Shown piece by piece: positions 960 to 34,692 of a stretch of 64,000 nucleotides of DNA. Within the stretch, counting starts at the first letter, position 1. Every line of letters starts with the position of its first letter. The position numbers and the translations under genes were made by a program. Origin of the DNA: Trypanosoma brucei. Taxonomy: Eukaryota. The notes beneath the pieces were generated by a model. The model did no database searches. It had not been told where the DNA came from and was given only the letters and a program-made list of their open reading frames with translations. The stretch covers positions 320,001-384,000 of the forward strand of contig CH464491.1 of NCBI GenBank assembly GCA_000002445.1, read 5' to 3'.

Positions 960-3900
960 ATTCATAAAGAGGCGGAACAGCTACGGAACTTAAAAAGAGA
1001 CCCGCTTCGTNATAAGAGGGAGATAGATGACCTTGTGGAGCAAATGAATAATACTGTTGGTGAACTTGCCCTGAACTTACTACGTAGCGATCGTGACTAC
1101 TTGCATTTGGCTCCTGAGGGAGTACCGATTGAAGAGCTTCCACTGGAGGTCGATGCAAAGTTTTGTGCTTTGGAGGCGGAGCGTGCAATGTTAAAAGGCG
1201 AGAACAACCCGAAGAATGCGAGTATGATATTATCTTTGGAAGAGAAATTAAATGAGCGTGCTCGCCAGCTGGCTCAAGAGCAACTACTGGAAGACCTGAA
1301 GGAATTGAGTTCTTTTCAGCATTGTGTTCCTCTCTCACTTTTATCGCCTCATACTGACGTTCAGTTTGCTGCTGATGTTGCTGAATTTCGACGACTGAAA
1401 AAAGAAGGGGAGCAAAACACCCCTGCCATTCAGGGCGTTGTCGGGAGACTTAACGCACGTGCGAATGAGCTCGCGGAAGAGTATTTGCGTACCGATCGCG
1501 CATCGTATCTTAACCCTGAACAACTTGGTGTGCCACTTGACTTGCTATCTTTGGACACAGACTCTGAGTTCGTGTCACTGGAAGCTGAAAGGCTAAAATT
1601 GTTGTTGGACAGAGATGGTTATGTGTCTTATATTAATGTGTTGGAAACTCGTTTGAATGATAGGGTGCGGGAGCTGTGTCGTCTGAGTCTACTTGATTTT
1701 CCCGAATTTTTGTTGGATGTGTCGAACTTTGGGGTTCCTTTGGAGGAACTGTGCCTCTTCGAGGATGATGGTTATCGGCGTCACATTTGTTCGTGGTACA
1801 AGCTTCGTAGGACCCCGGAGGTTGATAACGAACGCATTTCTTGTGAAGCTTGTATTGTTGAAATAGTTCGGGAAAAAGCAAAATTGTATACTGAGGAGAT
1901 ACTTCGATCTCTTCCTCTCGTATATCGTGGTATACCGCTACGTGATGCCGATTTGTTTCGGAACGATGGTTTTATTAATAGTGTTAAACGTTTTCGGCGC
2001 GCCGTTCGTGAAAAGCGGGATGAGAGTGAGATTGTGGAGGCCGAAGATAATATGAAAAATATAGCATTTGATATAATTGATGGTTTGATTTTAAAGGAAC
2101 GTGGCAGTCTTGACCAAGAGCCGGAAGGAATATCTATCAATAACGTTCCACTTGATTACGACAACGCCTATCTTGAGATGGAAGCAGAACTCCATAGTCT
2201 TTTAAAGCAACAATCCATGTGTGAAGCGGCTTCCATATTGCAACTCCGAAAAGCAATGAACGACAGGGTACACCATCTTGCCCTTATTGAGCTGGCGAAG
2301 ATGAGGACTTTCTTGGACCCTGAGATATTCGGCATACCCATTAAAGATCTTCGTCTTGAAGGTGACATGGACTTCCGGAACGCGGAAATTAGTCGATATA
2401 AAAAATTAAAAAATGAGGCAAATGCTGATGTGAAAGACCTTGAAGTTTTAATGACAGCACGTGCACTTGAGGTAGCGAAGGCTTTTGTTGCGCGAGAGAG
2501 AGCTTTTTTAGAGCCAGAACCACATGGGTTGTTGTTAGAGGAATTGCTTCTAGATACGCATAAGGTGTTTACGGATTTGGAGAGGGAGCGCCGAGTGCTC
2601 CTCAAGGAGCCAGGGTTGTGTGAAAACACTGTGAAAATCAAATCACTGCAGGACAAAATGAGAGCTGTGGTCAACGAGTTGGCGGTAGCGTACGTTGCAG
2701 AGTCCCGTAAGTTCCTAGATCCTGCGCCAGAGGGTGTTCCGCTTGAGGAATTGTCTTTAGACTCGAACGAGCTATTTATTGAATTGGAGAAAAGGCGGTT
2801 TGGGCTCCTGCGGGAGGGGAAGGGAGATGAGGGTAATCTTAAAGATGTCGAGAAAAGTATGCAGGACTGCATTCGTGAGTTGGCTAAGGGGCTTTTGAAG
2901 GAAAATCGTGCCTATCTCAACCAAAAGCCATTAGGTATACCACTTGATTATCTACCCCTCAACAACGACAAGAAGCTCCGTGAATTAGAGAGGAAACGAC
3001 GGGAACTTCTGAATACCTACGATAATGATTCTCCCCAAGTGAAGTCTATAGAGGGGGTGATTATTAAGCGAATTGACAAAATTGCTGCTCGTTACCTTGA
3101 AGGAGAGCGCTCCTTTCTGGATCCTTGTCCACAAACTGTTCCCCTGCGTTACTTGCCTCTTAACGCAGACACCAATTTTTGTTCCCTGGAACAGAGGCGG
3201 AGGGAGCTGCGCAGGGGAGGAGACACTGCCGAAGATGATGCAATGATAAAGGAACTGGAAATTCGTATAAATGATCGCGCTCATGAACTGGCTAAAGAGG
3301 TACTACACAATGGTCGGCTTTTTCTTCATCCTGAAATTCTCGGTGTCGCAGTTTCTGATATTCCTTTGAGTGATCACGAACCGTTTGTTCAACTTGAAGA
3401 AGCTCTGAGAAGAATCAAGGTCGACAACCCAATAAACAGCTTTATGGAGGTTGACCTAAGGGAGAAATTAAAGCAGTGTGCGAGACAGGTAACTGAAAAG
3501 ATGCTCGATGAAGAACGGAGTTTCTTGGATCAAAATCCTTTGGGTATTCCACTGAACAGTTTGATGCTGAATTATGACCCGAAAATGCAAGAACTCGAGC
3601 GAGTGAGAAGGAAGAAACTGCGGGATAAAGTGGACGCTAACGAGGAGGAGAGGGAGATGGTGAGGCGCGTCAACGAGATGGCGGAGGAGGAATTACGCCG
3701 TCAACGTATGTACCTTCCGGCCACACCATTGGGAATCCCATTCCAGTACTTGGGTCTTGACAGCGATGGGAAATTTGGCCAAATGGAAAATTTTCTACGC
3801 ACATTGAAAAGGGATCCTCTGTCGAAAGAAAAAGCGATTCGTGATCAGGAGAACGCAAATAGGCAGTACGTATTTAGAACGGCAGCGGAATACAAACGAA

Positions 3901-5993
3901 GGGAGCGCGCGTATCTTAACCCCGAGCCTAATGGAGTTTCCCTTAAGCGGCTATCCCTAGATACTGATCCCAAGTTTCAGAAGTTAGAACAAATGAGAAG
4001 AATGCTGATGCATAGCTCTGATTCAAATGATGCCCAAATTGGTCATTTGGAACATTTGGCTAACGAATATGTGCTTCAACTCGCTTTGCAACAGCTCGGG
4101 TGGCAAGACGCAGAATTCCATGACAGAAATAGGCACCTCGCAGACGATTGGGTGCGCATTAGCGAACTATACCCTGAAGGTAAATACGTACCCTTTGAAC
4201 CCACAAAAGCTAACGGTTGCTCGGTTGTCTCCGCGCCCAACGACGCAAGTTACCTGGCACCTTTTATCGCCGCTTTGAGCCGCTGTCCAGATATGCTAAG
4301 GCAATTATGTGATACAACATCACATCCCGTTAATGGTCCATATTCTTTCATCTTTTTTGATCCGAACAGCAACCCTGTTCGTGTTGACATTGATGACCGT
4401 GTGCCAGTGGATGCGAAGTGTGAGCCCAAGTTTACACGCGTGCCACACCGGTCTTGGTACCCGCTGCTGCTGGAGAAGGCATATGCGAAGTTTGTTGGTG
4501 GGTACGCAAAGCTCGACCAGTGCACACCACACGAAACCCTCCGTGATCTAACGGGCCGTCCAGTGCTACATATCCCTTTTGATGATCGACTCGCAGATGC
4601 AGCGAATACGGGTGACTTCCGATCTGTGAAATTCTGGAAGGGGATTAAAAGGAACCTCGCGGCTGGAGATGTGATCACATGCATAAGCAACCACGAAAGT
4701 GTGGACGGCCTTCACTCTCAATGCAGTTACGCTCTCCTTAGTGTAATCGAAACTGTGCATGAATCGAATGATGTCTCTGACATCGTGATCAAATTACACA
4801 ACTGCTACTACGATAGCCCGACATACGACGGCCCACTGTGTAACGATGATGATAACTGGACCGATGGTTTGAAGAGACTTTGCCATTATAATCCTGAGGA
4901 GGATGCACTTTACATACCTGTTCCTGTGTTTCTGCGTAACTTCTCGAGCATGCAGCGCTGTCACATAAACTGTGGCGACCGTCTGACTGCGCCTGGTGAG
5001 TGGACTGGGGTAAGCTGTGGAGGAAACCCGAAGTTCACAACTTTCCGGAACAACCCCATCTATCTTGTGGAAAACAAAACCTCCCGTCCCGTTACCATTC
5101 TTGCTGAGCTGCGGCATCATGCGCCAGCATACCGTGACCCTGACGATGTAAATCACTATCACCAGTCTGGGCTTGCACTGCTAAAGGCGATAAACACGCG
5201 TATGCCTGTGAGTCCGATCTTGACAAGTGTGACACACCGCTTTTTGCATAGGGGCATGATGTTGGATGCACGGGAGGTGTGTGCTCAAATGGAGTTGCCT
5301 CCGAGTACCACGTGCTATCTCGTCCCATATACGTTGGGTCGTGAGAACTATGGAAAGTTTCACATATCTGTGTACCCCGGTCTTGCAAAGGTGAATCTTG
5401 CCCCTCTTCGAACTGCGGCTCTCTTTGCCTCTCCTGTTGTTATTTCTATGTCGTTGAAAACGGAACTGCGGAACGGTGTGAAGGTTGAGTTTGTTGTGAG
5501 CAGAGCATGTGATGCTCATGTTTTGCTTTGTCAGAGACGACCAAAGGTTATTGATGTATGTAAAAGTGATTTACTCGGTGATTTCAGTGTTAACATGGCA
5601 GTTTATGATGAAAATGGAATCCTGTTGATGAACACAGGGGAGCCTAGGAATGCGCGGGAGGTTGCGGTTTCCTTCCGAGTTCCCCAGCAAGGTTTGTATT
5701 CTGCTGTAATTATGGCTCTTGGCGTGGATCGCCGAGGAAATCATAGAGGATGTCCCTGCCACCTAACGATATTTACGTCGAAAAAAGCGAAAGTGAGACT
5801 CCTTGGTACGGTCCCTAATTTTCCCAGGCGTGCAACACCAAGAACCTCTATCCGAAGTCAGTCAGCGGAAATCATGACACCAGTTAGTTTAACACCAAGA
5901 GACGGTCCCAAAACTGCAGGTTCGTTTCATTTGCCGTATATTTCCGGTGGACAGTCAACGACAGACTCTCCTTTTGTAATGGGCATAAAATGA
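960..5993 (+). CDS. Large calpain-like protein with a central array of ~68-aa repeats and a C-terminal inactive calpain core (domains II+III). Similar to the H49/ClpGM6-type cytoskeletal calpain-like proteins of trypanosomes. The 5' end is lost in the gap.
   Basis: One continuous ORF from the gap to the TGA at 5991-5993. It has ~15 units with consensus (F/Y)L(D/N)PxPxG(V/I)PLxxLxLDxDxxFxxLExxRRxL at ~205-nt period. A calpain-like region follows (4140-5990) with the catalytic Cys and His positions substituted. The ORF-track start at 804 is an artefact of reading through the Ns. Confidence 0.8.
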   Translation: MHKEAEQLRNLKRDPLRXKREIDDLVEQMNNTVGELALNLLRSDRDYLHLAPEGVPIEELPLEVDAKFCALEAERAMLKGENNPKNASMILSLEEKLNERARQLAQEQLLEDLKELSSFQHCVPLSLLSPHTDVQFAADVAEFRRLKKEGEQNTPAIQGVVGRLNARANELAEEYLRTDRASYLNPEQLGVPLDLLSLDTDSEFVSLEAERLKLLLDRDGYVSYINVLETRLNDRVRELCRLSLLDFPEFLLDVSNFGVPLEELCLFEDDGYRRHICSWYKLRRTPEVDNERISCEACIVEIVREKAKLYTEEILRSLPLVYRGIPLRDADLFRNDGFINSVKRFRRAVREKRDESEIVEAEDNMKNIAFDIIDGLILKERGSLDQEPEGISINNVPLDYDNAYLEMEAELHSLLKQQSMCEAASILQLRKAMNDRVHHLALIELAKMRTFLDPEIFGIPIKDLRLEGDMDFRNAEISRYKKLKNEANADVKDLEVLMTARALEVAKAFVARERAFLEPEPHGLLLEELLLDTHKVFTDLERERRVLLKEPGLCENTVKIKSLQDKMRAVVNELAVAYVAESRKFLDPAPEGVPLEELSLDSNELFIELEKRRFGLLREGKGDEGNLKDVEKSMQDCIRELAKGLLKENRAYLNQKPLGIPLDYLPLNNDKKLRELERKRRELLNTYDNDSPQVKSIEGVIIKRIDKIAARYLEGERSFLDPCPQTVPLRYLPLNADTNFCSLEQRRRELRRGGDTAEDDAMIKELEIRINDRAHELAKEVLHNGRLFLHPEILGVAVSDIPLSDHEPFVQLEEALRRIKVDNPINSFMEVDLREKLKQCARQVTEKMLDEERSFLDQNPLGIPLNSLMLNYDPKMQELERVRRKKLRDKVDANEEEREMVRRVNEMAEEELRRQRMYLPATPLGIPFQYLGLDSDGKFGQMENFLRTLKRDPLSKEKAIRDQENANRQYVFRTAAEYKRRERAYLNPEPNGVSLKRLSLDTDPKFQKLEQMRRMLMHSSDSNDAQIGHLEHLANEYVLQLALQQLGWQDAEFHDRNRHLADDWVRISELYPEGKYVPFEPTKANGCSVVSAPNDASYLAPFIAALSRCPDMLRQLCDTTSHPVNGPYSFIFFDPNSNPVRVDIDDRVPVDAKCEPKFTRVPHRSWYPLLLEKAYAKFVGGYAKLDQCTPHETLRDLTGRPVLHIPFDDRLADAANTGDFRSVKFWKGIKRNLAAGDVITCISNHESVDGLHSQCSYALLSVIETVHESNDVSDIVIKLHNCYYDSPTYDGPLCNDDDNWTDGLKRLCHYNPEEDALYIPVPVFLRNFSSMQRCHINCGDRLTAPGEWTGVSCGGNPKFTTFRNNPIYLVENKTSRPVTILAELRHHAPAYRDPDDVNHYHQSGLALLKAINTRMPVSPILTSVTHRFLHRGMMLDAREVCAQMELPPSTTCYLVPYTLGRENYGKFHISVYPGLAKVNLAPLRTAALFASPVVISMSLKTELRNGVKVEFVVSRACDAHVLLCQRRPKVIDVCKSDLLGDFSVNMAVYDENGILLMNTGEPRNAREVAVSFRVPQQGLYSAVIMALGVDRRGNHRGCPCHLTIFTSKKAKVRLLGTVPNFPRRATPRTSIRSQSAEIMTPVSLTPRDGPKTAGSFHLPYISGGQSTTDSPFVMGIK
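1096..4130 (+). repeat. Coding tandem repeat array, ~15 degenerate units of ~204-207 nt (68-69 aa).
   Basis: Recurrent FLDPEPxGVPLEELxLDxDxxFxxLExxRR blocks beginning near 1100, 1305, 1510, 1715, 1920, 2125, 2310, 2505, 2710, 2915, 3115, 3320, 3525, 3715 and 3910. Confidence 0.75.
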
Positions 5994-8167
5994 TTTTTTT
6001 TTCCAGCCTCCAGGCAAGTGAAACCATCGTTATCGTTTTTTTTGTTTTTGTGATCGTTTTTTTTTTGTTCTGTCGTCTCTTTCGTCATTTTGTGTGGGAT
6101 CCTCAAAGTATAAGTGCTTTTTTTCCTTTCTTTCGACGGCCTTGTCACGCGGTCGACATCGTATTATCGTAGCGCAAATGCGCGATTAATGTTTTCATTC
6201 TTTGTATTGATGCACCCAACGGCGACAAGTATAGTAATATTCTACCACTATTCTTCGCAAACGCACTTTCCCCCCTTTTTTATTTGTAGTGTGTTAAAAT
6301 GGTAGCAGTTTGCTGACTTGCGTGTGTATGAGGTATATACCTTCATTCTATTTGTTATACTCGCTTTTTTGCTATATTCGTTATATTCTCTGCCATTTTA
6401 CCTCCTTTACTCTTAGCAAGTGTCCACTTTTCCGTATACTTACTCATTTTTTTACACGTGTTCCTCTCTTTTTTTTTTCTTGAGTGTAATATCTTGCCCT
6501 TACATGTTTGTATTTATTTAACCTTTATCACCGCACGCTTCGTTGGCCAGATGATTGTAGTTTGCGCCCTATGATTTTTAGCTTTTTTGTGTGTGCTTTG
6601 CGTTCACACTTTTATGCGACGCATTTATTCCGTTGTATCGATCATTTTGTATCGTGTCACTGTAACATCAACAACGGACAATTAAAATGAATTTGTTCAC
6701 ATATTTATCACTCGTCCGGCGCTTTCAAGAATTTTTTTGAAAAGACAATTTTTACTGCTAGTTTGCATAATTTAATTCTTCCTAAAGGTGGTTCGGCAAC
6801 TGTAACGGGTCTGATGGGACATAAAATACTTTTTTTTAAAAAAAAGAAAAGGAAGGAAGAAAAAAAAAGACAAAAAGAAATGAGGAATGACGCTGCAATA
6901 ACTGACAGCCTCTCATTTATTTCGTCATTCCTTTTACATGCGCTTGTGTTTATTATTTTCGTATCTTTCTGAAGGGGGAAGAGAGAGAAGGATAATTCGG
7001 CATTGGGCATTTGAAGGAAATGACAGGAAGGGTGGTGAAGGGAATTGTTTCGTTTTCATTTTGAAGTAGAGACAATAATCGCAAATAAACGGAATTATTA
7101 TTATTATTATTTAGTGCTTTGTTTCAAAAATACGGACCTCTTTTTTTTTTGTATGTGTGCTTTCTTATTTTGATTTTCCTATTTTTTCTCCTCCTTTTTT
7201 TTAAAAAAAAAGAAACTTTATCTGCCCTGTTTTTTTTAATTCCACAGGAACAGATGCACGTTTTGTTGATGCAACGGCAATTGATGCGGATTTTAAGCAT
7301 ATCAGCACGCTGCCATAGTCCAAAGAGGGAGTAAAACATCATCTAATGTTTTTATTTTGAGTATTTATTTGGTATTCCCTTACACACTATTTTTTTTCGG
7401 GTCTATTTCCCTGTCGCCGACCGTTTTTTTTTCCCCCTCTTTCATTCTATTTTTTCCATTTTCATTGTTAGTGAACCAATGATATCAAGATTATTTATAC
7501 TTTTTGTTGTTATTGAACAAGTGCGAATTGTTTTACTCCAAATCCAATTCCTTCAAGGTGCTTTTTTTAAAAAAATATTATTACTCTTCATGTTAACATT
7601 AGAGTTAAATATTTTATTGTTCCCTCTTCTTTTCCCTTGCTGTTTTTTCTTCCTTCTCGTTGGGGAACCAAAACGTGCTGAACAAAAAAAAACAATCAAC
7701 AAAAGGGAAGGTGTAGGACAATAGGAAAGATTAGAAAGACCAGAGAAAGAAGCCGAATCAGTACGAAGGCCAAGCAGAGAGATTGCAGTAGTTAAATAAG
7801 AGAGGAATAAGCAAGAAGAAGGATAACGCGGTTTCATACGTTTATTTTTTGTGTGGTCCTGACAACACCGGGCTCTCTGTGTTTAAAACAAATTTACTGG
7901 TACTTGTGTGACCAAGTGTGTCGAGCCATTAAAACGCACAGGACATTAGACAGCTAAGAGAACAAGGAAGAGGTTTAAGTTGAATAAAGAGGGTTATTGT
8001 GAGCAGAAAATATCATCACTGTACCGCCGAGATAAATCTAAAAAGAAAAAAAAAAGAGAAATTAACAACCCTTTCCTCCAGAGAAAAAAAAAAAGAGGAA
8101 AAGAAGAGGGCGAAAGAAGAGTCAAAATAAACAATCAAGATATTGGTGGTAGAAAGTGTTTTGAATC

Positions 8168-9166
8168 ATGCAAGGGCAAAACCAAGCAGCAGTGGATGGC
8201 ACTATGGCCTACACCTTTCAGCACCCACCACAGGGGTTCTTACACGCACAATACAGGGATCCTCACAGCAGTGTAGGCCGTAAGCAATATGCCAATATTA
8301 TGCATGACCGTCGTGTGTATCGCGGGAATACGTACGCCGCCGTGCCCATGTCAACATATGCGCGAGACGAGGAAGAGCGAGTGGTTCGCGAGGCAAACAG
8401 ACGTCGCAAGGAACTTCAGCAGCGGGCCACTTCTATAAAGCGTCGTAAAGAACTTGACGCAGCCCAACGGAAACTTGCGACTCCGCCCCCCGTTGTTGGA
8501 CGGCAGCACATAGAAGTACAAACGGAGGAATTCCTCGAGGAACTGAAGGATGAGGTGGAAGTGGTTCAGCAGGAAACACAAACTGATCCCCTTCTCGACC
8601 GCCCTGCGACACCACCGTATGTTCCTGTAAAGTCTGGTCGTGATGCGGAGTCGCAAATTAATGAAGGAGATTTGTTTCACTTCGACGACGCCGTTGACCC
8701 GATTCTCGATGTTATGGTTGGAAAGACACTTGAACAAGCGATGTTGGAGGTATTGCAGGAGGAAGAACTGGAACTTCTGCGGCAGCAGCAACTGGAGTTT
8801 GAGCAACGACGCAAGGAGGAGTTACTGGAGGCACAGCGACTTGAAGCTCGTGAGAAACGCCTCTTTGAGGAGAAGGAGCGGCGGAAAAAGCAGGAAATCG
8901 AGCGCATCAAGCGCGAGAAGGCTACACGTGAGAAGCTCCAGGCCCGTCAGTTTGCCAAGATGTATTTAATGAACCTCGAAAACCGTGTCTTTGCAAGGCT
9001 TCAGGATGAGGGCTGGTTTCGTGATCGCGTATTACACGAGGTGGAGTTTGACTTCTTCCCGTGGCTCATGGATCAGGTCGCGGTGGAACTTGAAAAGAAG
9101 CAGCGGGCGCGTGTGTTGGTAGACGATCTCATTCGCCAAGTAGTTGCCATACAGTTGAATAGCTGA
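8168..9166 (+). CDS. RSP3: Radial spoke protein 3 (axonemal radial spoke stalk/AKAP).
   Basis: Carries the motif ANIMHDRRVYRGNTYA, characteristic of RSP3 (Chlamydomonas NIMFDRRVVRGNTYA). An acidic/coiled-coil C-terminal half follows, as in RSP3. The ORF is ATG-initiated and 332 aa. Confidence 0.8.
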   Translation: MQGQNQAAVDGTMAYTFQHPPQGFLHAQYRDPHSSVGRKQYANIMHDRRVYRGNTYAAVPMSTYARDEEERVVREANRRRKELQQRATSIKRRKELDAAQRKLATPPPVVGRQHIEVQTEEFLEELKDEVEVVQQETQTDPLLDRPATPPYVPVKSGRDAESQINEGDLFHFDDAVDPILDVMVGKTLEQAMLEVLQEEELELLRQQQLEFEQRRKEELLEAQRLEAREKRLFEEKERRKKQEIERIKREKATREKLQARQFAKMYLMNLENRVFARLQDEGWFRDRVLHEVEFDFFPWLMDQVAVELEKKQRARVLVDDLIRQVVAIQLNS

Positions 9167-10326: not shown

Positions 10327-11049
10327 CTTATTTAAAAAAAAACTCTTAGCCTCTTCTATTGTGCTCCTCTCACATCTACTCTCCTTCGGTACCTTTACCT
10401 TACCCTCGCTTTCTTTTTTCTTTTTTTTTTCTTTTTTTGTTTGATTTGTTTGATTTGTTTGACTGAGTGTTTTCTATTGGTGGTGTTGTTGTGGCGGTTG
10501 TTGTTGTTTGGCACTCTACTGTCGTGCACCGGATGTGTCTCATTCTAGAAAAGAAATCAGTTTTTTTTATTCAATATACATATATGTATATATCTTTTAT
10601 TTGTCCATTTTATTGTTATTATTATTTTTGGGGGGAGTGTGGGGGGAGAAATGTCATTGTAGAAGCCATCGCTTGTGGTTGCTGGTTTCTTCTTCCTCCA
10701 CCCCCAGTGCACGATATGTTGATGGTGCTATGAAATTCTCTGTTAGCCGGTTAACGTAATTTTACATCCCCTTCTTCTTCTTTCCCCCTCGGTCGTTTCC
10801 GCTACTCGCATTTCATTCCAGTTATATACGCTACGGTTTGAGATACTCAACCGCTTCCTGCATCGCGAACCTGCAAGCGGAAGAAGCAAGCTCGAAAAAG
10901 GGAGGTACAAAAGGGTTTGCTTCAAGAACTGTTGTTTTTTTTTTTGCTACAAGTTGTTGACCGACACCAGGACACAAAAAAACCGGAGAATCACCGTCTT
11001 AGCCGTTCCGAGTTTCAAAAAAGGAAATCAAAAAAAAAAAGGCGGTAGT

Positions 11050-14000
11050 ATGAAGGCGCTTAGTGACGATTCTCTACCTTCTTTCCGATTGGGATCACAG
11101 GGGAACTTAGCCGCGGTTCCCACGAAGGGACCATCACCGCGGTTTGAACTTGCACCTATTGTGAATGAACTTCAGCAGCAGATCATATCAGCGGACTGTC
11201 AAAGTGATGTCATTGCCATGCTTGGCGCATCCGGACGACTGGTGTTACGTGACACAATGCAAGATGGTCCACCACTAGTGACCTCTGTGCGTAACCCTTA
11301 CCGCGTGTTTATGAGCCCAGACGGCAACCACACTCTTGTCTCCACCACCGATGGGGAGTTGTGTTACTTTTCTGTACGGAATCGTAAATCAACAGGGCAT
11401 TTCACTCTCCACAATCGTGGTGCCAGTGGGAATGAGGCTGCGCGAAATAATGTGGCTTCGTGTGTTTGTTGGCTTTCATCTGATGCTGGGTTTATTGGAA
11501 GTCCACGCACTTCTATCAGTGGGGCAGAAGGAGTAAGCGGCAGTGGCAGTGGTTGGCAGTTGGGATCAGGAACCGTTTACTGCCTTGTGGGCACAAAGTT
11601 GGGTGGTCTTGTGTTTTTAGTGAAAGTGGAGGTACATGGAGACGGGGGTAGTGTGAAGTTAACGTGCTTCCGTTCTCTGCAACTTCCCGACGCCAACCCC
11701 CAACAACAAGTTGGGTCTGTTGAGGTCGAACATATAAACTCCTTATGGGTTTTGTTCGTGTCAACTCCTACAGTTCTCTATCGAGTGGAGGGGCTCATGG
11801 ATTCTCCAGCAGATTTCTTTGATAGTATCACTGCTTCAACAGGTATGTGGAATATTCGTAGGGTGTCTACTGCGGGGAATGCTTCAGCGTCGGGTGCTGT
11901 CGTGTTGTACCGTCCAGGTATTGGGATGCCGGCACAATCGTATGCATGGGCAAGTGTAGCTGGTGTGGTACATGGTTTGCTAAATAGCCGTTCAGATGGA
12001 AGTTCTGCTAATAGTGGTGAAGCAGCTCTTGTTGAATTAACCGACGGAGGTTCTGTTGTGAATGAACAGCTTCTTGACTTGGAGCACGTAGTGGTACCCA
12101 AAAGTAGTTCCAACGAAAGTGCCGCGATTACGGCGGCGGTGCCTGATCACTCCTTCAGAGGCGAGTCACAATTGCCGGTTGGTGCAACGTTGGTGGACGT
12201 TGGACTAACTGCTTTCCATATGTTGTTACTGTATAGGGATAGGTTCATTGTGCTCAACCACCCAGCCGGTCTTTCGTGGCGGGGAGCCTCCTCCACACTG
12301 CAGGGGGATTGGCCATACCTTTGTGAAATTGAGGAGCGTATTCGGTTCGATCCATTTCGTTATTCAAAGCGGGAGTCACCCCTACGCGGAATCGTTCGAG
12401 ACACTGCAGCACGGAAGGTGTACGTCTTTGATGCGAACACTTTCTGGGAGCTTCAGGTAGAACAGGAGCACCGACAGCAGTCGGAACTCTTCCTTGACCG
12501 AGCGGTCAACACAAGGGAGAGCTCTCATCTGCGAAACCGCTACTTCAGGGCCGCGTATCAACTATGCAAATACGATAAGACAATGAGAAATAAGGTTCAA
12601 TTTCTTCGTGGAAGGTTTCTCCTTCAAATAGGTGCTATTCGTCGGGCGATGGATGTTCTTGCGGAATGTGACTTCTTCGAGGACGTTTACCACCTCCTTA
12701 TGTCCTTTCGGAACAGTAAGGTGTTGCAACTGTACGTAGAGAAACGGTACAAGAACTTGGTCAGGCGTGTCACTGAGGGGAAAGGTGTGCAAATGCAGTT
12801 GGCGTGTTTGTTGGCGCTCATTGTAGTGTTGCGGTTGGACACCATTGCACGTAGTGAAAACATAACTGATGCACCTTCCGCAACTGCGGTAGCAGAGACT
12901 TTAACATCGGGGTTGACAGCTTTCATTGAAGAGACGTTGGAAGAGCGATTGCCCATGTTTAGTTGTGTTGGTTACGTTAATCTCATCGCACAGCTGTTGG
13001 AAGAGCAGTCTCGACCAGAATTAGTACTGAGGTTCGCTGAAAGGATGAACAAGATGCGCTACGTTATCACTTACCATGTATCGCGCGCCAACTATGTAGA
13101 GGCAGCAAATGTGCTTGGGGCTCATGCGCGGCGGATCGATATGCGGAGTACCTGGTACAGTCTTGCCCCCATCCTCATGAAGAAGTGTCCTATACAGTTT
13201 ACCAAAGCGATGCTGCGTGCGGTTAGCCGAGATGCCTATGACATGCCCTATTTGCTTTTGAATGCTGAAAAACTCATCCCAGTTTTCACCCAATATGAAC
13301 CGCACATGAACGAGGATCCTGACAATCAGGAGCATCAAGTTGTTTTATTTCTCGACAATTGCATCACGAAATTGGGTTGTGATTCTCCTGCCGTCCACAA
13401 TTACTACCTAAGCCTTGTGGTCAAACACGACACGAAGCGCCTAGATGAATTTCTCCAGTCTTCGCTTTACTATGATATAAGATTTGCCCTGCGGCAGTGC
13501 CTCGAGTCGCGCAGATATCGGCAGTGCGTGAGATTGTACAGCCAACTTCACCTTTATGAGGATGCATTGCGAGCAGCATTGGATTGTGCGGAGTTGACAC
13601 AGGACGAGACGCCAGGTGGCGCCAGCAGTGCCATCGTCGGTAGTGGTGTGAACGAATGTGCTGCGACATCTCTCGTAAGCGGAGCGGATTTGGGATGTAA
13701 TGAAGGTGAGGAAAGGGATGCATGGTCGAGGTTGAGCGTAGCGCAGGAATTACTTCTATCGCTTCCGGATGATATGCCGTTACCTCGGCGCAAGGCCTTA
13801 TGGCTCATTGTGGCTCAACATGTTATTCAGAAGAATGACAACCGTGCAGCACTCCGTATTTTAGCTGACTCCTGTGGAGTTTTGAAACTGGAGGATATTC
13901 TCGAGGAAATGAACGACGTTAGCGTCATGGAAAACTTCAAAGGGGCTATATGCAAGAGTCTTGAGGTTTATGCATCGTTGACTAAGCAGCTTCGGGAGAA

Positions 14001-14373
14001 GCAGTTGGAGGCGGGTCGCATGTCCGAGGAACTGAAACGGGAGATTGAACAGCCTCGCAACAGCTTTGGTTACGTAACAGCGAATCAGCGATGTATAATT
14101 TGCCGCTCAACTTTGCTTCAGGGGGATGCCCCGTTCTTCATTTACCCCCGCTGTTGCCATGCAGTACACGAGTCTTGCGCGGTGGCAAAATTAGAGAGCA
14201 TTGGGGGGTTGGAGGCTTTTGTTGTGGACGAAGGACTTCCAAAAAACTTCTTGGACGGCATTAACTCGACACGTGATTTGGCCCAGATGGATTGCGTGAT
14301 TTGCGGCGAAACTGCAATATTGGAGATTGACATGCCATTATTTACAGAGGACGATTCTTGGTTAGTGTTGTAG
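11050..14373 (+). CDS. VPS11/VPS18-family HOPS/CORVET tethering subunit. It has an N-terminal beta-propeller-like region, clathrin-heavy-chain-repeat-like helical region and a C-terminal RING-H2 zinc finger.
   Basis: 1107-aa ORF. The C-terminus reads CIICRSTLLQGDAPFFIYPRCCHAVHESC...CVIC (RING-H2 spacing). Alpha-solenoid segments (e.g. RFALRQCLESRRYRQCVRLYSQLHLYEDALRAAL) are typical of class C Vps proteins. The first in-frame ATG is at 11050; the ORF-track start at 10954 is TTG within a T/A tract. Confidence 0.6.
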   Translation: MKALSDDSLPSFRLGSQGNLAAVPTKGPSPRFELAPIVNELQQQIISADCQSDVIAMLGASGRLVLRDTMQDGPPLVTSVRNPYRVFMSPDGNHTLVSTTDGELCYFSVRNRKSTGHFTLHNRGASGNEAARNNVASCVCWLSSDAGFIGSPRTSISGAEGVSGSGSGWQLGSGTVYCLVGTKLGGLVFLVKVEVHGDGGSVKLTCFRSLQLPDANPQQQVGSVEVEHINSLWVLFVSTPTVLYRVEGLMDSPADFFDSITASTGMWNIRRVSTAGNASASGAVVLYRPGIGMPAQSYAWASVAGVVHGLLNSRSDGSSANSGEAALVELTDGGSVVNEQLLDLEHVVVPKSSSNESAAITAAVPDHSFRGESQLPVGATLVDVGLTAFHMLLLYRDRFIVLNHPAGLSWRGASSTLQGDWPYLCEIEERIRFDPFRYSKRESPLRGIVRDTAARKVYVFDANTFWELQVEQEHRQQSELFLDRAVNTRESSHLRNRYFRAAYQLCKYDKTMRNKVQFLRGRFLLQIGAIRRAMDVLAECDFFEDVYHLLMSFRNSKVLQLYVEKRYKNLVRRVTEGKGVQMQLACLLALIVVLRLDTIARSENITDAPSATAVAETLTSGLTAFIEETLEERLPMFSCVGYVNLIAQLLEEQSRPELVLRFAERMNKMRYVITYHVSRANYVEAANVLGAHARRIDMRSTWYSLAPILMKKCPIQFTKAMLRAVSRDAYDMPYLLLNAEKLIPVFTQYEPHMNEDPDNQEHQVVLFLDNCITKLGCDSPAVHNYYLSLVVKHDTKRLDEFLQSSLYYDIRFALRQCLESRRYRQCVRLYSQLHLYEDALRAALDCAELTQDETPGGASSAIVGSGVNECAATSLVSGADLGCNEGEERDAWSRLSVAQELLLSLPDDMPLPRRKALWLIVAQHVIQKNDNRAALRILADSCGVLKLEDILEEMNDVSVMENFKGAICKSLEVYASLTKQLREKQLEAGRMSEELKREIEQPRNSFGYVTANQRCIICRSTLLQGDAPFFIYPRCCHAVHESCAVAKLESIGGLEAFVVDEGLPKNFLDGINSTRDLAQMDCVICGETAILEIDMPLFTEDDSWLVL

Positions 14374-14976: not shown

Positions 14977-17133
14977 ATGAAGTTTTGGGTGAAGGCAATA
15001 ACGGATAAAAACGTGCAAGAGCAACTTCTTGTTGACGCTGAGAGTTTAGATGAGCTCACGAAGGAGCTCAGCAGCTTACTCAACACGTGTGTGACTTCAA
15101 TATCCGTTTCCGACTTCCAGTCACAAGTAGTGGACAAGATCAACAGTGGTACCGATATTGTGACTGTCAACGTCGGCACATCAACCACCTGTAGTGATAA
15201 CAATTCAAAGGCGAATACTAACACCAGTCATTTTGAGACAAGTGTAACGAGCACAGGGCATTGGTTATGTAACGATGCAGCCTTGTCGTTGACTGAAGAT
15301 GACGAGTGGTTGTGTTCAACCGCCAGCACAGCTATTGCGGAAGGAACACCCGTAAGACGTACATTAGTAGCAAATCAGTTGCTCCTGGATGCTACACCGC
15401 AAATAGACCGTATTTGCCTTCGCCGTGACCAGTTGGAGTTACTACTTCGGCCGTCCCATAGGGGTGCCTACCACAGTGTTATCACGGGTTGTTTTGCACG
15501 CATGCGATGGCGACAGGGATACAGTCTGTACCAAATCGTTCGCCCTGCAAGTGATCAGATGCTCGTATTCGACATGATTCACTATGAGGAAACGCATGGA
15601 ATGGAGGTAGTTAGCAACGCTCCACCTGTTGCCCAGGAACTTACCACGTGGGGGAAGCGGATGCGTGCTGCCTCTCGTCCCTTCGTGACTGCAGGTTTTA
15701 TTGAGGCAAAGGTGGGAGATGTAAATTCTGCCCTGCGAACTGCAAGGGGATCCTCTGTGGAGCGCCCGTCGCTACAACCACAAATAATGGTCCCTTCAAC
15801 TCCCCCTGCTTCCAGCACAGATTCTTACCCAAGACGAGCGCGAAAAACGCTTAATGCGTATAGTCCCTCCCTAGCCTTCTTCAGCTTTGACCGCTTACTG
15901 ATAAAAACGAACGATACACTCAAACACTCGCAGTTTTGTATTGTGAATGAACCGGAAATGGATTCTTTCAGCGTCGTCATTTTCGCGTCACGGTTTTCCA
16001 ACACTTATGCGAAGAAACCAAGACGGTCAGACTTTGCGGGGTGTATGATTACCTTAGATAAGAATGCTCGAACCCCCGGAATAGCAAGTGAAAGAGATAT
16101 TACAGAGAAGGGTTACGAAATGCTTTGCTCTCCGCAGTGGTGGGGGTGCCGTTATATCGCACTGGTTAGACCCCAACCAACCGGAAGTAGTGAACCCTAC
16201 ATTGATAGTAGAGGAATTTGTATGCAGGACTTCACGGTGTTGTCCGGTCGCTTCTTGTCGAGTCTCTTTAATCCACCAACGACAACGTCCCTACCGGTTC
16301 CTACTTGGGCAACAGGCGAGGGTCTCTCTGCTAACATTTTGCGTCCCCAACTTGTTGTGCACCACAAAAAGCTTCATGTATTCTACCTTATTAGCATTGT
16401 GACATCGTCTCCGGTTCGACGTCCGTGCAGCGTTCGCTTAGGAGCTTGTGAGCCGTTAAATGTTGGTGCTGTGTCAAGCAATGCCAATGCAGACAGCCAA
16501 GCTGCTGAAGGTGGTGCTTCTTTGGATGGCTCGTTCGCGAACAGTGGTGCACTACCGCACAGGAACAGATCGAATAGTCCCGCACTTGTGGGTATATGCC
16601 AGTATAGTCTAGCACACGCGGTTTGTGAAGGGGATGCGTTTGGACAGTGGCATATTGTGTCAGATGAGGAACCGCTGCTGTCTTGTCAAACTAATATGCC
16701 CGTATTTACTGCTGCCTCAGTCCCTGCAGTCGATGCTAAGCGTGAGAAAAGTATTGTTAGCGACAATTCACCAGAAAGTGATCCATTGAACGTGCTGCAA
16801 TTACTGTGGTATGAAGGGGACGCTTCCGACAGTCAGTCCTCGGCCCCATCCAACCAATCCACATTGTCCTCCGCATCTCGAAGTAATAGCGTGAGTAACC
16901 GCCCTCTACTACCGTTTGAGCGATGGGTAAACACGCATGAGGATGCATCACCAGATGCTTGGGAACAGGAACCAAGTTATTCCGCTGTACGCATAAATAC
17001 GGAACTAATGAAATCCGGCGTTTGTTCCCTGTCATTATGTGAGCACGAGGGGATGGTACTTGCTGCCTCCGTCAACCGAGACGCTCAGCAGCGCACTGTT
17101 GTGATAGTGGCACCACTAACGACAGAACCGTGA
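14977..17133 (+). CDS. Plus3-domain protein, a possible Rtf1-like Paf1-complex component, with a long Ser/Ala-rich low-complexity C-terminus.
   Basis: The segment RICLRRDQLELLLRPSHRGAYHSVITGCFARMRWRQGYSLYQIVRP matches the Plus3 domain pattern (R..LE.....P.F...V.GCFVR.....Y.L.QI). The first ATG is 14977; the ORF-track start at 14968 is GTG. Confidence 0.45.
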   Translation: MKFWVKAITDKNVQEQLLVDAESLDELTKELSSLLNTCVTSISVSDFQSQVVDKINSGTDIVTVNVGTSTTCSDNNSKANTNTSHFETSVTSTGHWLCNDAALSLTEDDEWLCSTASTAIAEGTPVRRTLVANQLLLDATPQIDRICLRRDQLELLLRPSHRGAYHSVITGCFARMRWRQGYSLYQIVRPASDQMLVFDMIHYEETHGMEVVSNAPPVAQELTTWGKRMRAASRPFVTAGFIEAKVGDVNSALRTARGSSVERPSLQPQIMVPSTPPASSTDSYPRRARKTLNAYSPSLAFFSFDRLLIKTNDTLKHSQFCIVNEPEMDSFSVVIFASRFSNTYAKKPRRSDFAGCMITLDKNARTPGIASERDITEKGYEMLCSPQWWGCRYIALVRPQPTGSSEPYIDSRGICMQDFTVLSGRFLSSLFNPPTTTSLPVPTWATGEGLSANILRPQLVVHHKKLHVFYLISIVTSSPVRRPCSVRLGACEPLNVGAVSSNANADSQAAEGGASLDGSFANSGALPHRNRSNSPALVGICQYSLAHAVCEGDAFGQWHIVSDEEPLLSCQTNMPVFTAASVPAVDAKREKSIVSDNSPESDPLNVLQLLWYEGDASDSQSSAPSNQSTLSSASRSNSVSNRPLLPFERWVNTHEDASPDAWEQEPSYSAVRINTELMKSGVCSLSLCEHEGMVLAASVNRDAQQRTVVIVAPLTTEP

Positions 17134-18721
17134 ATACAACGAGAAAAAACCGGAAAGAAAAAAACATAACATATTGAACAAATCGAAGAAGGGTGTACTT
17201 TGTTCTGCGAGTAAGAAGAGGGTGGAGGAATCGTATTTTTCCGATTTCTTGATGAACGTTCGCCTTTTTTTTTTATATATTTTAAGAGGACTATTGTGGT
17301 TGCATGTGGGTACAAAAGAAGGAAATAAATGAAATGATAATAAAGTGTGCATTTATGTCTTTTTCGTTATCATTTTACTTTTCGTTCATTCATTTTATAT
17401 TCTTTTTTTCCAGCTTCAATAATTCCGTTGTACCTTATTGTTCTAAATAATGTATAATCGTGTTACAATCCCCGTGTCCCATGTTTTCTTCACCTACGAC
17501 TTTTCCCTCTCCTTCTAAAAAAAGAGAAGAATGAAAAATATAATATTAATGAGCTTTCTTTAATTGTGGTTACTGTTATCTGTACTATATTTTTCAATGT
17601 TTTTTTGTTTTTGTATTTTTCGCTTTAGCATATTTATGTCAATAAGATGCGGGAGCGTTCACGAGAATTATTAGTTGTGTGGTTGTCGTCTTTGTTATCT
17701 CCGGCACAACACCTTATGTGCTTATTGTGTGGACACAAGAGAAACAGAAATGGGAGAAGGGGGATTTTTTTTTTTTAAAAAAGAAGAACCTTTTTTCGTT
17801 TTATTTTCGTATTCGGTCGTATAATCCCACTTTTCGTTACTTTTATCTCTATTACCTCTTTTCATTTTGCTTCCCGCTTTCTTCTTTTAACTTTTCCCCC
17901 ATCTTCCTCTTCCCAAGTTTCTTTTTTGTATAGTGTGCTGAAGTTTGCGAGACTGAGCGAGACTGTTACACGTTACAACAGTCGTAATGGTATTATTATT
18001 ATTATTATTAAACAATGATAATAATAATGATAATAACTTTTGCTAGTGTTATTATTACTATTTTGATTTCCGTCTACGTTCTATTTATTTTGATTTTGCC
18101 TTCTGTTACTTTCTTTATTACTTTAGTTGTTTTAGTTCCAGTTTCACTTTTTTGTTGTTTTGTGTGTATGTGTGCATTTTGCGTGTTTGTAGTAGTTATT
18201 CAGTGCCCACTCCTCCCTTCTCCCATACGCTCAGATTTCCTTTATTACGCTAGAAGGAAGCAGAGCGAACACGCATACACAAAACGAATAAAGAAAATTT
18301 AAAATGAAAAAAGAGAAAGAAAAGAAAAGTACTCTCCATCATTCCTCTTTATTTTTCCATATGAGATCCTGTTGGCTCCCATCTCATCTCATCACTTCTC
18401 CCGTTATCTGTCTCCTCACAGTGTCAGTGGCATCGGCGCCAGATGATTATTTGCATGTTCATTGCTTGCGGTTCTTTCCAGTCTAAACTAAAAAACAACA
18501 AAAACTTCGCTTTTCCCCCTATTTCATCTGATTATTCCCTTTTGTAATCGATTTTTTAAAAAAAATGTTTATATGCGTACAACGTGCGTAGATACATTTT
18601 CTCTAATATATATATATATATATATTGATACGCAAGTAATTATAAGAGAATCAAGGCGGAGGGGTTCAGTACGTTACTTTAGGCGTAAGGGGTGGCGGGA
18701 AACTGAAACGGGTTGGATATC

Positions 18722-19699
18722 ATGTCTGATACATTAAGTAGCAAACTAGACGATGTCGATGCGGATGTTTTGCGCGGCGCGTATGAGCCCGTAGCGATTA
18801 TCGGAGAGGGAACTTATGGTGTTGTCTTCCGTGCACGTGGGGTTGCGAGCGGGGCCGAGTTTGCGATAAAGAAACTAAGAAGTGACAAGCTGAAGGAAGG
18901 CGTTCCTGCAACAACACTTCGAGAAGTGACGCTGCTGCACGAAATGAGTGACAATCCAAATGTGGTGCGACTGCTCGATGTTCTGTGCTCCAAGCGTCGT
19001 GTTTATTTGGTGTTTGAGTTGCTTAACGAAGATCTGAGGTCTTTTATTCGCCGCAACTATCCGCAACCACCCGCTACTGCCAGTAGCTCTGTTGTACCTT
19101 TGAGACTCGTGAAAAATTTTACCTGTCAAATGCTTCACGCCTTGTGGAGGTGCCACCAGAATCGAATCATTCACAGGGACCTTAAACCTGCAAATGTGCT
19201 TCTCGGGGTAAAGAAGTCAACGAGGAATGACGGCGAGGATTCGTACATTTTGAAACTGGCGGACTTTGGGCTTGCGCGTACTTATGAGATGACATTGTTG
19301 ACGTATACGAAAGAAGTAATGACGTTGTGGTATCGTGCACCAGAGATTTTGCTTGGGGAGCGGCACTACACGCCAGCCGCAGATGTGTGGTCGGTTGGTT
19401 GCATTGTGTTGGAGATGATTGTTGGTTGTCCTGTTTTTAGAGGTGAGTCCAACCGGGACCAGTTAGATAGGATCTTCTACACTGTGGGAACACCGACGGA
19501 AGAGACATGGGCTGGCGTAGCAATGATGCCAGGATATGACAAGGCAACGAAAATATATAAGGTGGCGCCTCTCCATGAGCGATTGCCGACATTCGATAAG
19601 GAGGCAGTACAGTTTGTTGCATTTCTTTTGCAAGTCAATCCAAAAAGCCGTCCCACTATTCCTACAATTCTTCAACATCCTTTTCTGCAAGGTGACTAG
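18722..19699 (+). CDS. cdc2-related protein kinase (CRK/CDK family).
   Basis: Carries the Gly-loop IGEGTYGVVFRA, AIKK lysine, a PSTAIRE-like helix EGVPATTLREVTLLHE, HRDLKPANVLL, DFGLAR, WYRAPE and DVWSVGCI. There is a ~12-aa insert before the DFG. The first ATG is 18722 (MSDTLSSK...). Confidence 0.85.
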   Translation: MSDTLSSKLDDVDADVLRGAYEPVAIIGEGTYGVVFRARGVASGAEFAIKKLRSDKLKEGVPATTLREVTLLHEMSDNPNVVRLLDVLCSKRRVYLVFELLNEDLRSFIRRNYPQPPATASSSVVPLRLVKNFTCQMLHALWRCHQNRIIHRDLKPANVLLGVKKSTRNDGEDSYILKLADFGLARTYEMTLLTYTKEVMTLWYRAPEILLGERHYTPAADVWSVGCIVLEMIVGCPVFRGESNRDQLDRIFYTVGTPTEETWAGVAMMPGYDKATKIYKVAPLHERLPTFDKEAVQFVAFLLQVNPKSRPTIPTILQHPFLQGD

Positions 19700-20897
19700 C
19701 TCCTTCCCCTCCTTCCACCCCCAACACGTTCGTTGCTTTGCTGTTGCTTTGTTTTATATCATGATTAATTTATCGGTGAAGATGTGGTAATCAGTTTTGA
19801 TTGAATAAAATCTCCGGGGTCTCGATCATTTGGTGAGGCGTTACGATTTAACAATGCGTATTTTTGTGCGTGTTTTGCAATCAACCATTGTAGTCGAATA
19901 GATATGAGAGGAATCAACATCCCGTAGAATTTCCAAAGGCTCAGACGTAATGAAATCACCTGAGTCGCGTAAATCATTTCTTAATTTTTTAATTTTTCGC
20001 CGTCGTTGTTTTTTTTTCTTTCTTTGTATTCTTGGAGGTTTCTTCGTAGCGGCTTTCTTGGCGCGGATCATACACATAATTAGTGCGGGGTGAGGGTCAT
20101 TGATTGAGGGAATGGGGAACCAACTTCAGTAACCGCTTTTGTATGAGGGGATGGGGCATGAGTTGTGTACTCAAAATAAGAAAAATAACGCAAAGAGAGT
20201 GAAAATCAGTACACACGGTCTGTACGCATAGCCGGTGTTCGCGACTGGGGAAACAACACAATGCTATTAGTTATTAAGTTGTTAGTGGAGGTGGTGTTTT
20301 TGATTATTTATGCACTTCACCTGTGGTAATGTCTCTGAGGTATCGTGGGGTACCTCGTTTTGTAAATCTATTGAAAATGTTTTTTAAATCTCCCACGTCT
20401 CTTGCTTCGTTTTCGTTTTGTTTAATAGTTGCTGAAGTGTTATTGGCATATTCTTCATTTCTCTTTTTATTTCCGTTTCATTTGTTTCTTCCTCCACCCC
20501 TTATCACCCTTTTCTTCTTTCGCTGTTTGGAGTATGAAAATGATTGATCACCACTCGCCATGTGCAGGGGTATGTTTCTTCTTGATATGAAATGCCGATC
20601 AAGGTTGCGGTTATTCCCTCCCTGAAATGCTAAAGCGAAAATATATATATGTCAGCGGTTTCTTCGTTAACACTTTTCTCGGCCGGTTTATATCGTGTGT
20701 AATTGCTTTTAAGGCTTGTGAAAGCTATGGTCGCCTCTGTAATTAGTTGAATGATTTTTTTAAAAAAAGCTTTCATTGTAATATTCTGGTCATCTCTTGG
20801 TTTCCCTTTTTTTCCCATCAAACATGTCCTTCTAACACTTCATTAAACTAACAAAATATAAAGAAAACAAGCAAGTATAGTGAGTCATATTTGTTGC

Positions 20898-22247
20898 ATG
20901 AGCACCTCAATTGAGGGAGACAATTGTGGTATATGTTTCACTTCGATTCATCCTCAGTGTAACCCACGTGGAAAACTGAATAGTTGTGGACACATATTTT
21001 GTGCATATTGTATTAAGAAGTGGGCGGAAAGCACAAATGTCTGCCCTCATTGCAAGGCAAGATTTACAACCATTACGGTGTCAAATACCAAAGGTAAAAA
21101 TGAAGTAAAGAAGGTTCGAAAGCGAAACTACAAACTATGGGAATTAAGTGATTCGGAAAGTGAGGGTGAGGGCGGTGAAGCCCTGGCACTGCCACGCGGT
21201 TCGGTGCGATGTGGCGTTTGCGGTGAAGGCGACAACGCCATTCGTATGATTTTTTGCGACCGCTCCCAATGTGACTATACCGTTCATTTGGATTGTGTTG
21301 GGATGTCCGACAGGCCATCTGAGTTCTTTTGTTCCGAGTGTCGTGCGATGTTCGGGGAAGGGGAAACTTCAACATGTCCGCCACCCAACGTCGGAAAGGA
21401 TCGCAGTTGTAACCCAACAGAATATAACGGCAGTAGCTCCTCGCCCAGTTCTAATGTTTGTGCGCCTGCTCCTTCACCTTGCACAACTACAGCGAGGAAA
21501 ATTAGTGTCCCACCGCCGGCATTTCTCCGAGAGGCAATGGAGCGATCCGCTGGGAAGAGGCTAAGAGACGCTAATGTGGAGAACCGCAGTGAAACGCCGG
21601 TCATGCCGCGCCGAAACGCAAATGACTGGAGTCCTGAAGGCGGATATGTAAATGTCGACAACGGCACCATCAACCACGCAGCACAAACCGCGATGCAGCA
21701 ATATCTTCAACGTATGGAGCAACGCGCGCATAGGGAGAAACTTCAATGCGCACACCGCCCCGCGCAACGGCAAGGAGGGGGAGACTGTTTGCGTCAAAAT
21801 ACCCAACTGCGTCTCGATAGAAGGTGCGCTCAGGTCAGGTCTGCTGCAAATGCTGCTGAAATGGAAGCGCTTCTCAATCCGATAACACGGCAGCGTGAAG
21901 AGGAGAGACTTGCAAGGCAACTGGCTAAGGACCTGATGCCCGTGCTTCGCCGCAATCAGTACCTTAAAGACAACCGATTAGTGTTGGACAGTGACGGGTG
22001 TGTGGTTATGAATCCGCCACCGTCGGAACTGGAGGCTTCTGGACGTGAAGCTGAATTGTACAGTCAAGCCATGGTGGAAGGGCGGCGCATGGCTCAGCAA
22101 CGCATTAGTGCAAAGGTGGCAAGTGCACGCCTTCGGAAGGAACAATTACTCATGATTCAGGCAGAAAGGGAGGCTCTTGCGCTTAACCAGCTGGCGATGA
22201 TGATTGCCTCACGTCGCACCGGGGGGGGGGATCCGAAGGTTGACTGA
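20898..22247 (+). CDS. RING (C3HC4) plus PHD zinc-finger protein, PHRF1-like.
   Basis: The RING is CGICFTS...CGHIFCAYCIKKW...CPHCK. The PHD is CGVCGEGDN...IFCDRSQCDYTVHLDCVG...FFCSECR. The first ATG is 20898. The 3' end contains a G10 homopolymer (22220-22229) just before the stop. Confidence 0.7.
   Translation: MSTSIEGDNCGICFTSIHPQCNPRGKLNSCGHIFCAYCIKKWAESTNVCPHCKARFTTITVSNTKGKNEVKKVRKRNYKLWELSDSESEGEGGEALALPRGSVRCGVCGEGDNAIRMIFCDRSQCDYTVHLDCVGMSDRPSEFFCSECRAMFGEGETSTCPPPNVGKDRSCNPTEYNGSSSSPSSNVCAPAPSPCTTTARKISVPPPAFLREAMERSAGKRLRDANVENRSETPVMPRRNANDWSPEGGYVNVDNGTINHAAQTAMQQYLQRMEQRAHREKLQCAHRPAQRQGGGDCLRQNTQLRLDRRCAQVRSAANAAEMEALLNPITRQREEERLARQLAKDLMPVLRRNQYLKDNRLVLDSDGCVVMNPPPSELEASGREAELYSQAMVEGRRMAQQRISAKVASARLRKEQLLMIQAEREALALNQLAMMIASRRTGGGDPKVD
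22220..22229. repeat. G10 homopolymer inside the last codons of the RING-PHD gene.
   Basis: caccggggggggggatcc seen directly. Runs of this length are prone to length errors and slippage. Confidence 0.9.
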
Positions 22248-26778: not shown

Positions 26779-27166
26779 TGTGCTTTATTTTAACTTGGCC
26801 GTTACTTTTCTAAATACCTTCCCGTGTCACTTTCCATGTGCTATTCTCATTACTGAGCGTAACTCACGTTTCTGACGTTACCGCTAGCTTTTCATGGATG
26901 AATGTGACGGAAACTGAAATCTTACGTGACTTATCTTCTGCTGCGTCTTCGTTGAACTACCGTTGTCGCTATCATACATTGTGCCTTTACCCTCACTTTA
27001 TGTGTTTTGTTAAGTTTCGGCTTCGTATGCGCCCCTATTAAACCTTTACCCTCCGCTTTCTGTCTTCTTGTTACGCACTGTTTTTTCCCCCTCTCGTTTT
27101 TTTCTTTGCTTTCTCATCGTTGTTATATTGCCTTTGCAATTTTTTTTAAAAAGAAGGTACCTCATT

Positions 27167-34662: not shown

Positions 34663-34692
34663 AGTGTATGGGAGGAAATAGTTGAGAATACA

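Follow-up and report, generated by a model that had tools for sequence, protein, structure and literature searches.

A Trypanosoma brucei protein with PB1-like, variant Plus3 and five-bladed beta-propeller domains belongs to a kinetoplastid family separate from Rtf1

A 64,000-nucleotide segment of Trypanosoma brucei chromosome 11 (contig CH464491.1, positions 320,001 to 384,000 of the forward strand; hereafter the window), in which the large open reading frames (ORFs) are all on the + strand, contains at 14977..17133 a gene whose product carries a true Plus3 domain, the domain also found in the Paf1 complex (Paf1C) subunit Rtf1. Here, the domain lies between an N-terminal PB1-like domain and a C-terminal five-bladed beta-propeller, and this architecture recurs in a family spread across the kinetoplastids. 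The protein is related to Rtf1 through the Plus3 domain only and is not a member of the Rtf1 family. A role in transcription elongation via the Plus3 domain is plausible by analogy with Rtf1, and our tentative reading, to which we give a rough probability of 0.45, is that the protein is a kinetoplastid-specific three-module Plus3 adaptor that would recognise a partner by its phosphorylation, probably Spt5 on RNA polymerase II (Pol II) during elongation. The gene and its product are organised as follows, disorder being taken from the predicted local distance difference test (pLDDT):

14977..17133, + strand: complete coding sequence (ATG at 14977, TGA at 17131-17133, 718 amino acids), from the ORF list and its translation
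14977..15186, + strand: N-terminal beta-grasp (ubiquitin-superfold) domain, residues 1-70, closest to PB1, topology b-b-a-b-a-b
15187..15393, + strand: disordered Ser/Thr/Asn-rich linker 1, residues 71-139, pLDDT <50
15394..15756, + strand: Plus3 domain in a variant form, residues 140-260, with one hairpin deleted and some basic positions lost
15424..15426, + strand: codon of R150, which aligns with human RTF1 R366 and S. pombe Prf1 R227
15757..15873, + strand: Pro-rich disordered linker 2, residues 261-299, pLDDT <50
15874..17130, + strand: C-terminal five-bladed beta-propeller, residues ~300-718, with disordered insertions at 477-539, 587-602 and 616-640

The Plus3 domain had been proposed in the initial annotation from a motif that we locate at residues 145-190, and sequence, profile and structure comparisons all bear this proposal out. 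A search against PF03126, suggested there as a check, gives a full-coverage match for the whole T. brucei protein at residues 142-229 (profile 1-108 of 109; E 7.2e-5, 23.7 bits) and 26.8 bits (E 8.1e-6) for the isolated N-terminal 265 amino acids, the gathering threshold being 27 bits. Four orthologues exceed the threshold (P0020 with 44.0, P0022 with 37.2, P0025 with 34.3 and P0021 with 32.7 bits), PF03126 is matched at E<=10 by all 15 members scanned (best E 3.7e-11) with no other Pfam family recurring, and the orthologue of Bodo saltans, like P0009, already bears a precomputed PF03126 label. When the family profile was compared with all PDB sequences, each of the seven matches was an RTF1 Plus3 chain (E 4e-5 to 4e-4); the profile was required for this, as a single-sequence phmmer search of PDB with the T. 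brucei protein returned zero matches. At the structural level, a pLDDT of 91-97 is reached across residues 140-260 in an AlphaFold2 model that covers residues 1-265 and rests on an alignment of 15 sequences, and with the full-length model Foldseek gives template modelling (TM) scores of 0.71-0.75 to 4L1U, 4L1P and 3U1U. The protein thus shows the three-dimensional fold of a Plus3 domain, with its N-terminal helices, Tudor-like beta-barrel and C-terminal helices.

Outside the Plus3 domain, the protein had been described as Ser/Thr/Ala-rich low complexity, and this description does not hold: these residues make up only 28% of the whole 718-aa protein, poor conservation and disorder are confined to residues ~71-139, 261-299, 477-539 and ~587-640, and both residues 1-70 (pLDDT 90-97) and residues ~300-718 are folded and conserved as far as B. 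saltans. Linker 1 has a mean top-residue frequency of 0.27, a low sequence entropy and a Ser/Thr/Ala content of 0.35-0.45. Linker 2 includes a basic motif RRx(R)x[T/S] (RRARKT, residues 286-291, window 15832..15849), which is kept in nearly all family members and, judging from its sequence, could be a nuclear localisation signal or a phosphosite of the basophilic-kinase/14-3-3 type.

Conservation is highest in the N-terminal beta-grasp domain (MKFW...EQLLV). Its likeness to PB1 structures is modest (Z scores of 6.5-7.5), CIDE-N and UBL domains scoring nearly as high, and its identity to PB1 domains (MEKK3, NBR1, p62, Par6, p67phox, Cdc24), CIDE-N and UBL is 5-15%. Neither a PF00564 match in Pfam nor a clear OPCA acidic motif was found in this domain; K2 is invariant and K6, the candidate beta1 lysine, is not, being Leu in Bodo-type sequences. 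The C-terminal region, residues ~300-718, has the five-bladed propeller fold and contains polar residues that hardly vary in the family (N312, D313, R339, N342, S351, D352, R373, D374, K378, H467 and H547). Its identity to the propellers of GH43/GH62/GH32/GH68/GH130/GH159 and to six-bladed sialidases is 6-10%, and it differs from them by its long disordered insertions.

The initial annotation had further put the protein forward as an Rtf1-like Paf1C candidate, a proposal that stands as far as the Plus3 domain is concerned and fails for membership of the family. The nearest known domain is indeed the Plus3 of Rtf1/RTF1/Prf1 (2BZE, 3U1U, 4L1P/4L1U; 6TED chain R; 7XN7 chain r). However, where Rtf1 has its HMD, the window protein has a PB1-like N-terminus followed by a disordered linker, and its C-terminal 420 residues form the propeller in place of the Pincers, Latch, Fastener and Hook described at the C-terminal of Rtf1 (PMC13289920). 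In the hidden Markov model (HMM) search presented below, the similarity to Rtf1 orthologues starts at ~77 and ends at ~294 of the family profile, and the AHNFD-type C-terminal motif of Rtf1, found in P0037, P0040, P0055 and P0063, is missing from the window protein. Since its architecture is unlike that of Rtf1, we regard it as a Plus3 protein of the kinetoplastids in its own right, and not as the Paf1C subunit that is missing. An HMD has been reported nowhere in Kinetoplastea, and the 2026 survey that recorded "Rtf1 Plus3 but no HMD" in this group (PMC13289920) may have counted the family described here.

Another kinetoplastid protein is already known as the Plus3 protein associated with the complex. 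In Leishmania tarentolae, LtaP14.0860 ("RTF1L", 73.5 kDa, Plus-3 at aa 2-152) is enriched with LEO1 and listed in the LEO1/JBP3 tandem affinity purification (TAP) (PMC8544896), and in T. brucei, Tb927.7.4030 co-purified with CTR9-TAP (PMC3332058 Table 1). The window gene is not in that CTR9-TAP table or in the searchable parts of the same paper's supplement, which is a weak negative given the stringency of TAP. Like RTF1L, the window protein is a kinetoplastid-specific "hypothetical" of similar size (78.6 kDa) with a divergent Plus3 and no HMD. It differs, on the published descriptions of RTF1L, in its locus (chromosome 11 against chromosome 7), in the position of Plus3 (after the PB1-like domain against the extreme N-terminus), and in that association with CTR9 and LEO1 is experimental for RTF1L only. 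If anything, Plus3 is closer to the canonical form in the window protein than in RTF1L, because the published evidence for the RTF1L domain is an HHpred probability of 92.8% with E 0.048 (PMC8544896).

At least three Plus3 proteins are present in T. brucei, so that a Plus3 match is insufficient to identify Rtf1; comparative surveys of Paf1C should be wary of equating a "Plus3 hit" with "Rtf1". Other non-Rtf1 proteins with this domain include the T. brucei Plus-3/calcineurin-like phosphoesterase Tb427_050051200, which was recovered in a PNO1 small-subunit pull-down, plant TZP, Drosophila tPlus3a/b and the multi-Plus3 proteins P0031, P0034 and P0036. In these, as in the window protein, Plus3 is a portable module joined to unrelated domains, although the pairing of a PB1-like domain with a five-bladed propeller is seen in none of them.

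The Plus3 domain is named after three conserved positively charged residues, and the family departs from Rtf1 at several basic positions. We used MAFFT to align human RTF1, five Rtf1 orthologues and 16 members of the family, and compared the result with HMMER. R150 falls opposite human R366 in both alignments and is Arg in 16/16 members of the family and in 6/6 Rtf1 orthologues. Also kept in 16/16 are R175 (R388, in GCFVR), S213-N214 (S443-N444), E221 (E451) and W225 (W455), while Y182 (Y400) is kept in 15/16. By contrast, the hairpin at human 409-424 is deleted, the R401 position is variable and basic in 0/16, and R429 and R435 are replaced in 16/16 by D and by E/D, respectively, so that two of the five basic positions conserved in Rtf1 (R366 and R388) remain. 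HMMER and MAFFT concur on R366, R429 and R435; they disagree near R401, where neither of them places a basic residue. In the literature, R366 in human and R227 in S. pombe Prf1 are required for binding to the phosphorylated C-terminal domain of Spt5, whereas mutation of S. pombe R262/R296 abolishes the binding of nucleic acids and not that of phospho-Spt5; the Plus3 of Rtf1 also binds single-stranded DNA (ssDNA) and RNA (bioRxiv 10.1101/2020.04.15.044131). Going by the constant 139-residue offset from R227 to R366, R262/R296 would correspond to human R401/R435. As a whole, the domain remains basic, with an isoelectric point (pI) of 9.8 comparable to that of the human domain, and the family Plus3 may thus bind nucleic acids.

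When 1.84 billion representatives were searched exhaustively with the family HMM, 52 proteins were returned; about 20 of these share the N-terminal domain, Plus3 and propeller and are true members of the family. In the remainder, the match is limited to profile ~77-294, the Plus3 region, and these are either canonical Rtf1 orthologues with the AHNFD...EWKK tail (the four mentioned above) or multi-Plus3 proteins. Within Trypanosoma, members occur in T. grayi, T. theileri, T. rangeli, T. cruzi, T. congolense and T. vivax, and beyond this genus in Strigomonas culicis, Angomonas deanei and B. saltans, along with several environmental or Sequence Read Archive (SRA)-derived sequences. No named Leishmania member was found among the same representatives, for which both a loss and a clustering artefact are possible; further word-indexed homology searches, with profile A1 and with P0017, added neither members nor a named Leishmania sequence, the candidate list of P0017 having probably been filled by its low-complexity inserts. 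One SRA-derived protein of 3540 aa (P0027) gives seven separate matches to the family profile and would be either a protein with several Plus3/propeller copies or a fusion of gene calls.

Gene order is also conserved. Two SRA-derived orthologues (on contigs L001 and L002, from other trypanosomatids; the GC content of L001, 45%, is unlike that of Leishmania) share the gene string of the window, namely calpain/DUF7623, RSP3, the Plus3 gene, RING, WD40 and DUF4470/4471, and because the string is the same we regard them as positional orthologues. The Vps18-like gene and CRK6, which flank the Plus3 gene in T. brucei (10954..14373 and 18713..19699), are missing there in both; an ORF of 269 or 466 aa is found 5′ of the Plus3 gene instead, with the RING gene directly 3′. 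In T. brucei, the corresponding gene, encoding RING and PHD fingers (20880..22247, + strand), is two genes downstream.

In trypanosomes, nearly all genes are transcribed in long polycistronic units with little control of initiation, and elongation and termination factors are thus a necessary site of Pol II regulation. To our knowledge, the trypanosome Paf1 complex is atypical, Paf1 itself having never been found. In the model that we propose, the Plus3 domain would use R150 and the conserved GCFVR/VSN core to read a phosphorylated peptide and would thereby bring the protein to a phosphorylated partner. That partner would most probably be Spt5, recognised at its C-terminal region while Pol II elongates, and the docking may resemble that of Rtf1. 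The PB1-like domain would serve in homo- or hetero-oligomerisation or in partner binding, and the propeller would be a platform whose conserved polar pocket could provide a second specific binding site or a catalytic site. Such an adaptor would be nuclear and would work alongside the PAF1C-associated RTF1L without replacing it. T. brucei has, in the window protein, a second, better-conserved Plus3 protein that keeps the Arg by which Rtf1 reads phospho-Spt5, which makes it a testable candidate for a lineage-specific elongation adaptor; its family is also the Plus3 family that HMM searches detect most easily.

Several points weigh against this model. The T. brucei sequence itself scores slightly below the PF03126 gathering threshold, with both the 23.7 bits of the whole protein and the 26.8 bits of its N-terminal part. 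The loss of three basic positions (R401, R429 and R435) together with the deleted 409-424 hairpin implies a binding surface unlike that of Rtf1. The localisation, the partners and the ligand of the protein are predictions, and the model presupposes, by analogy, that kinetoplastid Spt5 bears a phosphorylated C-terminal region of the type that binds Rtf1. Tb927.11.1170, the gene to which we assign the window gene below, is absent from the searchable parts of the TrypTag, CTR9-paper and structure-based re-annotation supplements. Finally, a trypanosome Plus3 need not serve Pol II elongation, since Tb427_050051200 appears in ribosome-assembly pull-downs. The protein could accordingly act elsewhere, for instance in RNA or ribosome biogenesis, by binding RNA, ssDNA or another phosphoprotein, which we deem a possible though rather unlikely explanation. 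The nucleic-acid binding of Rtf1 Plus3, the strongly basic character of the window domain, the PNO1 pull-down and the several non-Rtf1 architectures that contain Plus3 would all agree with it. However, the positions equivalent to R262/R296, which bind nucleic acids in Prf1, are non-basic or acidic in 16/16 members on our mapping, and direct support for a pathway of the RNA or ribosome type is lacking. More doubtful still is the idea that in kinetoplastids the protein truly descends from Rtf1, or stands in for it functionally, as a Paf1C subunit in which a PB1-like domain and a propeller have replaced the HMD and the C-terminal elements; the kept R366 equivalent would agree with it, whereas the architecture and the association of RTF1L with the complex speak for a separate protein.

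In regard to the propeller, it could itself be the business end of the protein, as a binder of carbohydrates or small ligands or as an enzyme of GH43/GH32/GH130/sialidase type targeted by Plus3. Glucosylated base J marks and controls Pol II termination sites in kinetoplastids, and it would be a conceivable target. We nevertheless judge this very improbable, given the 6-10% identity, the lack, within residues 300-718 of the family alignment, of any invariant Glu for the catalytic Asp/Asp/Glu triad of GH43/GH32-type enzymes, the lack of any GH-family signal in Pfam or PDB sequences even at E<=10, and the fact that no named Leishmania orthologue was found among the searched representatives. PDB five-bladed propellers are mostly glycosidases, so that a fold match list rich in these enzymes is biased, and no secreted glycosidase combines a cytoplasmic or nuclear context with Plus3, as the window protein would. 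The glycosidase reading, which finds no support at the sequence level, is thus kept solely as a low-probability case. A bolder version, at least as improbable, is a kinetoplastid invention in which the Plus3 phospho-reader would tether a ligand-binding or catalytic propeller, with its conserved polar pocket, to phosphorylated Spt5, the ligand being perhaps a sugar, conceivably that of base J; if true, it would connect the machinery of elongation, in a way not recognised before, with a chromatin or DNA mark specific to the lineage. The Plus3 likeness could, lastly, be a chance or low-complexity artefact in an ordinary lineage-specific ORF, as the sub-threshold score of the T. brucei sequence and its empty single-sequence PDB search might suggest, but this is hardly credible and we rejected it: every profile match in PDB is to RTF1 Plus3, Foldseek recovers the same fold, and the 15 scanned members all match PF03126.

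An exact-sequence look-up identifies the product as XP_828208.1/EAN79096.1/UniProt Q387D5, annotated as "hypothetical protein, conserved", with identical or near-identical copies in T. b. gambiense, T. equiperdum and T. b. equiperdum (the last being DPX39_110018100). By gene order, the gene is Tb927.11.1170, because it is placed between RSP3, which is Tb927.11.1150 (PMC6140319), and CRK6, which is Tb927.11.1180 (PMC3894213), with the Vps18-like gene also between them:

8168..9166, + strand: Radial_spoke_3 (RSP3) gene, 5′ of the Plus3 gene
10954..14373, + strand: Vps18-like gene, between RSP3 and the Plus3 gene
18713..19699, + strand: CDK-type kinase gene (CRK6), 3′ of the Plus3 gene

The searchable main texts of the literature make no mention of Q387D5, XP_828208, EAN79096 or Tb927.11.1170. 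The gene, its AlphaFold entry and the automatic label "Plus3 domain-containing protein" on the Bodo orthologue are already public; no earlier account of the family, its PB1-like/Plus3/propeller architecture or its variant Plus3 surface was found in the literature searched.

Elsewhere in the window, a calpain-like protein (804..5993, + strand) has 13 DUF7623 repeats followed by Peptidase_C2, and its syntenic counterpart in L001 (1..3943) has a predicted length of 4346 aa. The gene at 52563..54035 (+ strand) encodes a ubiquilin-like protein that includes a UBA domain. Eight ORFs of 225-1156 aa, within 27068..29509, 30886..32232, 33952..38803, 45766..46710, 51247..52458 and 59621..63091 (+ strand), have no Pfam match at E<=1e-4 and are probably more kinetoplastid-specific "hypothetical" proteins. 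The stretch at ~46710..51247 is AT-rich, especially at 48001..50000, where GC is 0.30 against 0.42-0.50 elsewhere, and has no ORF of >=200 aa, although the + strand polycistron around it is dense in genes; a second dip in GC, to 0.355, is found at 6001..8000.

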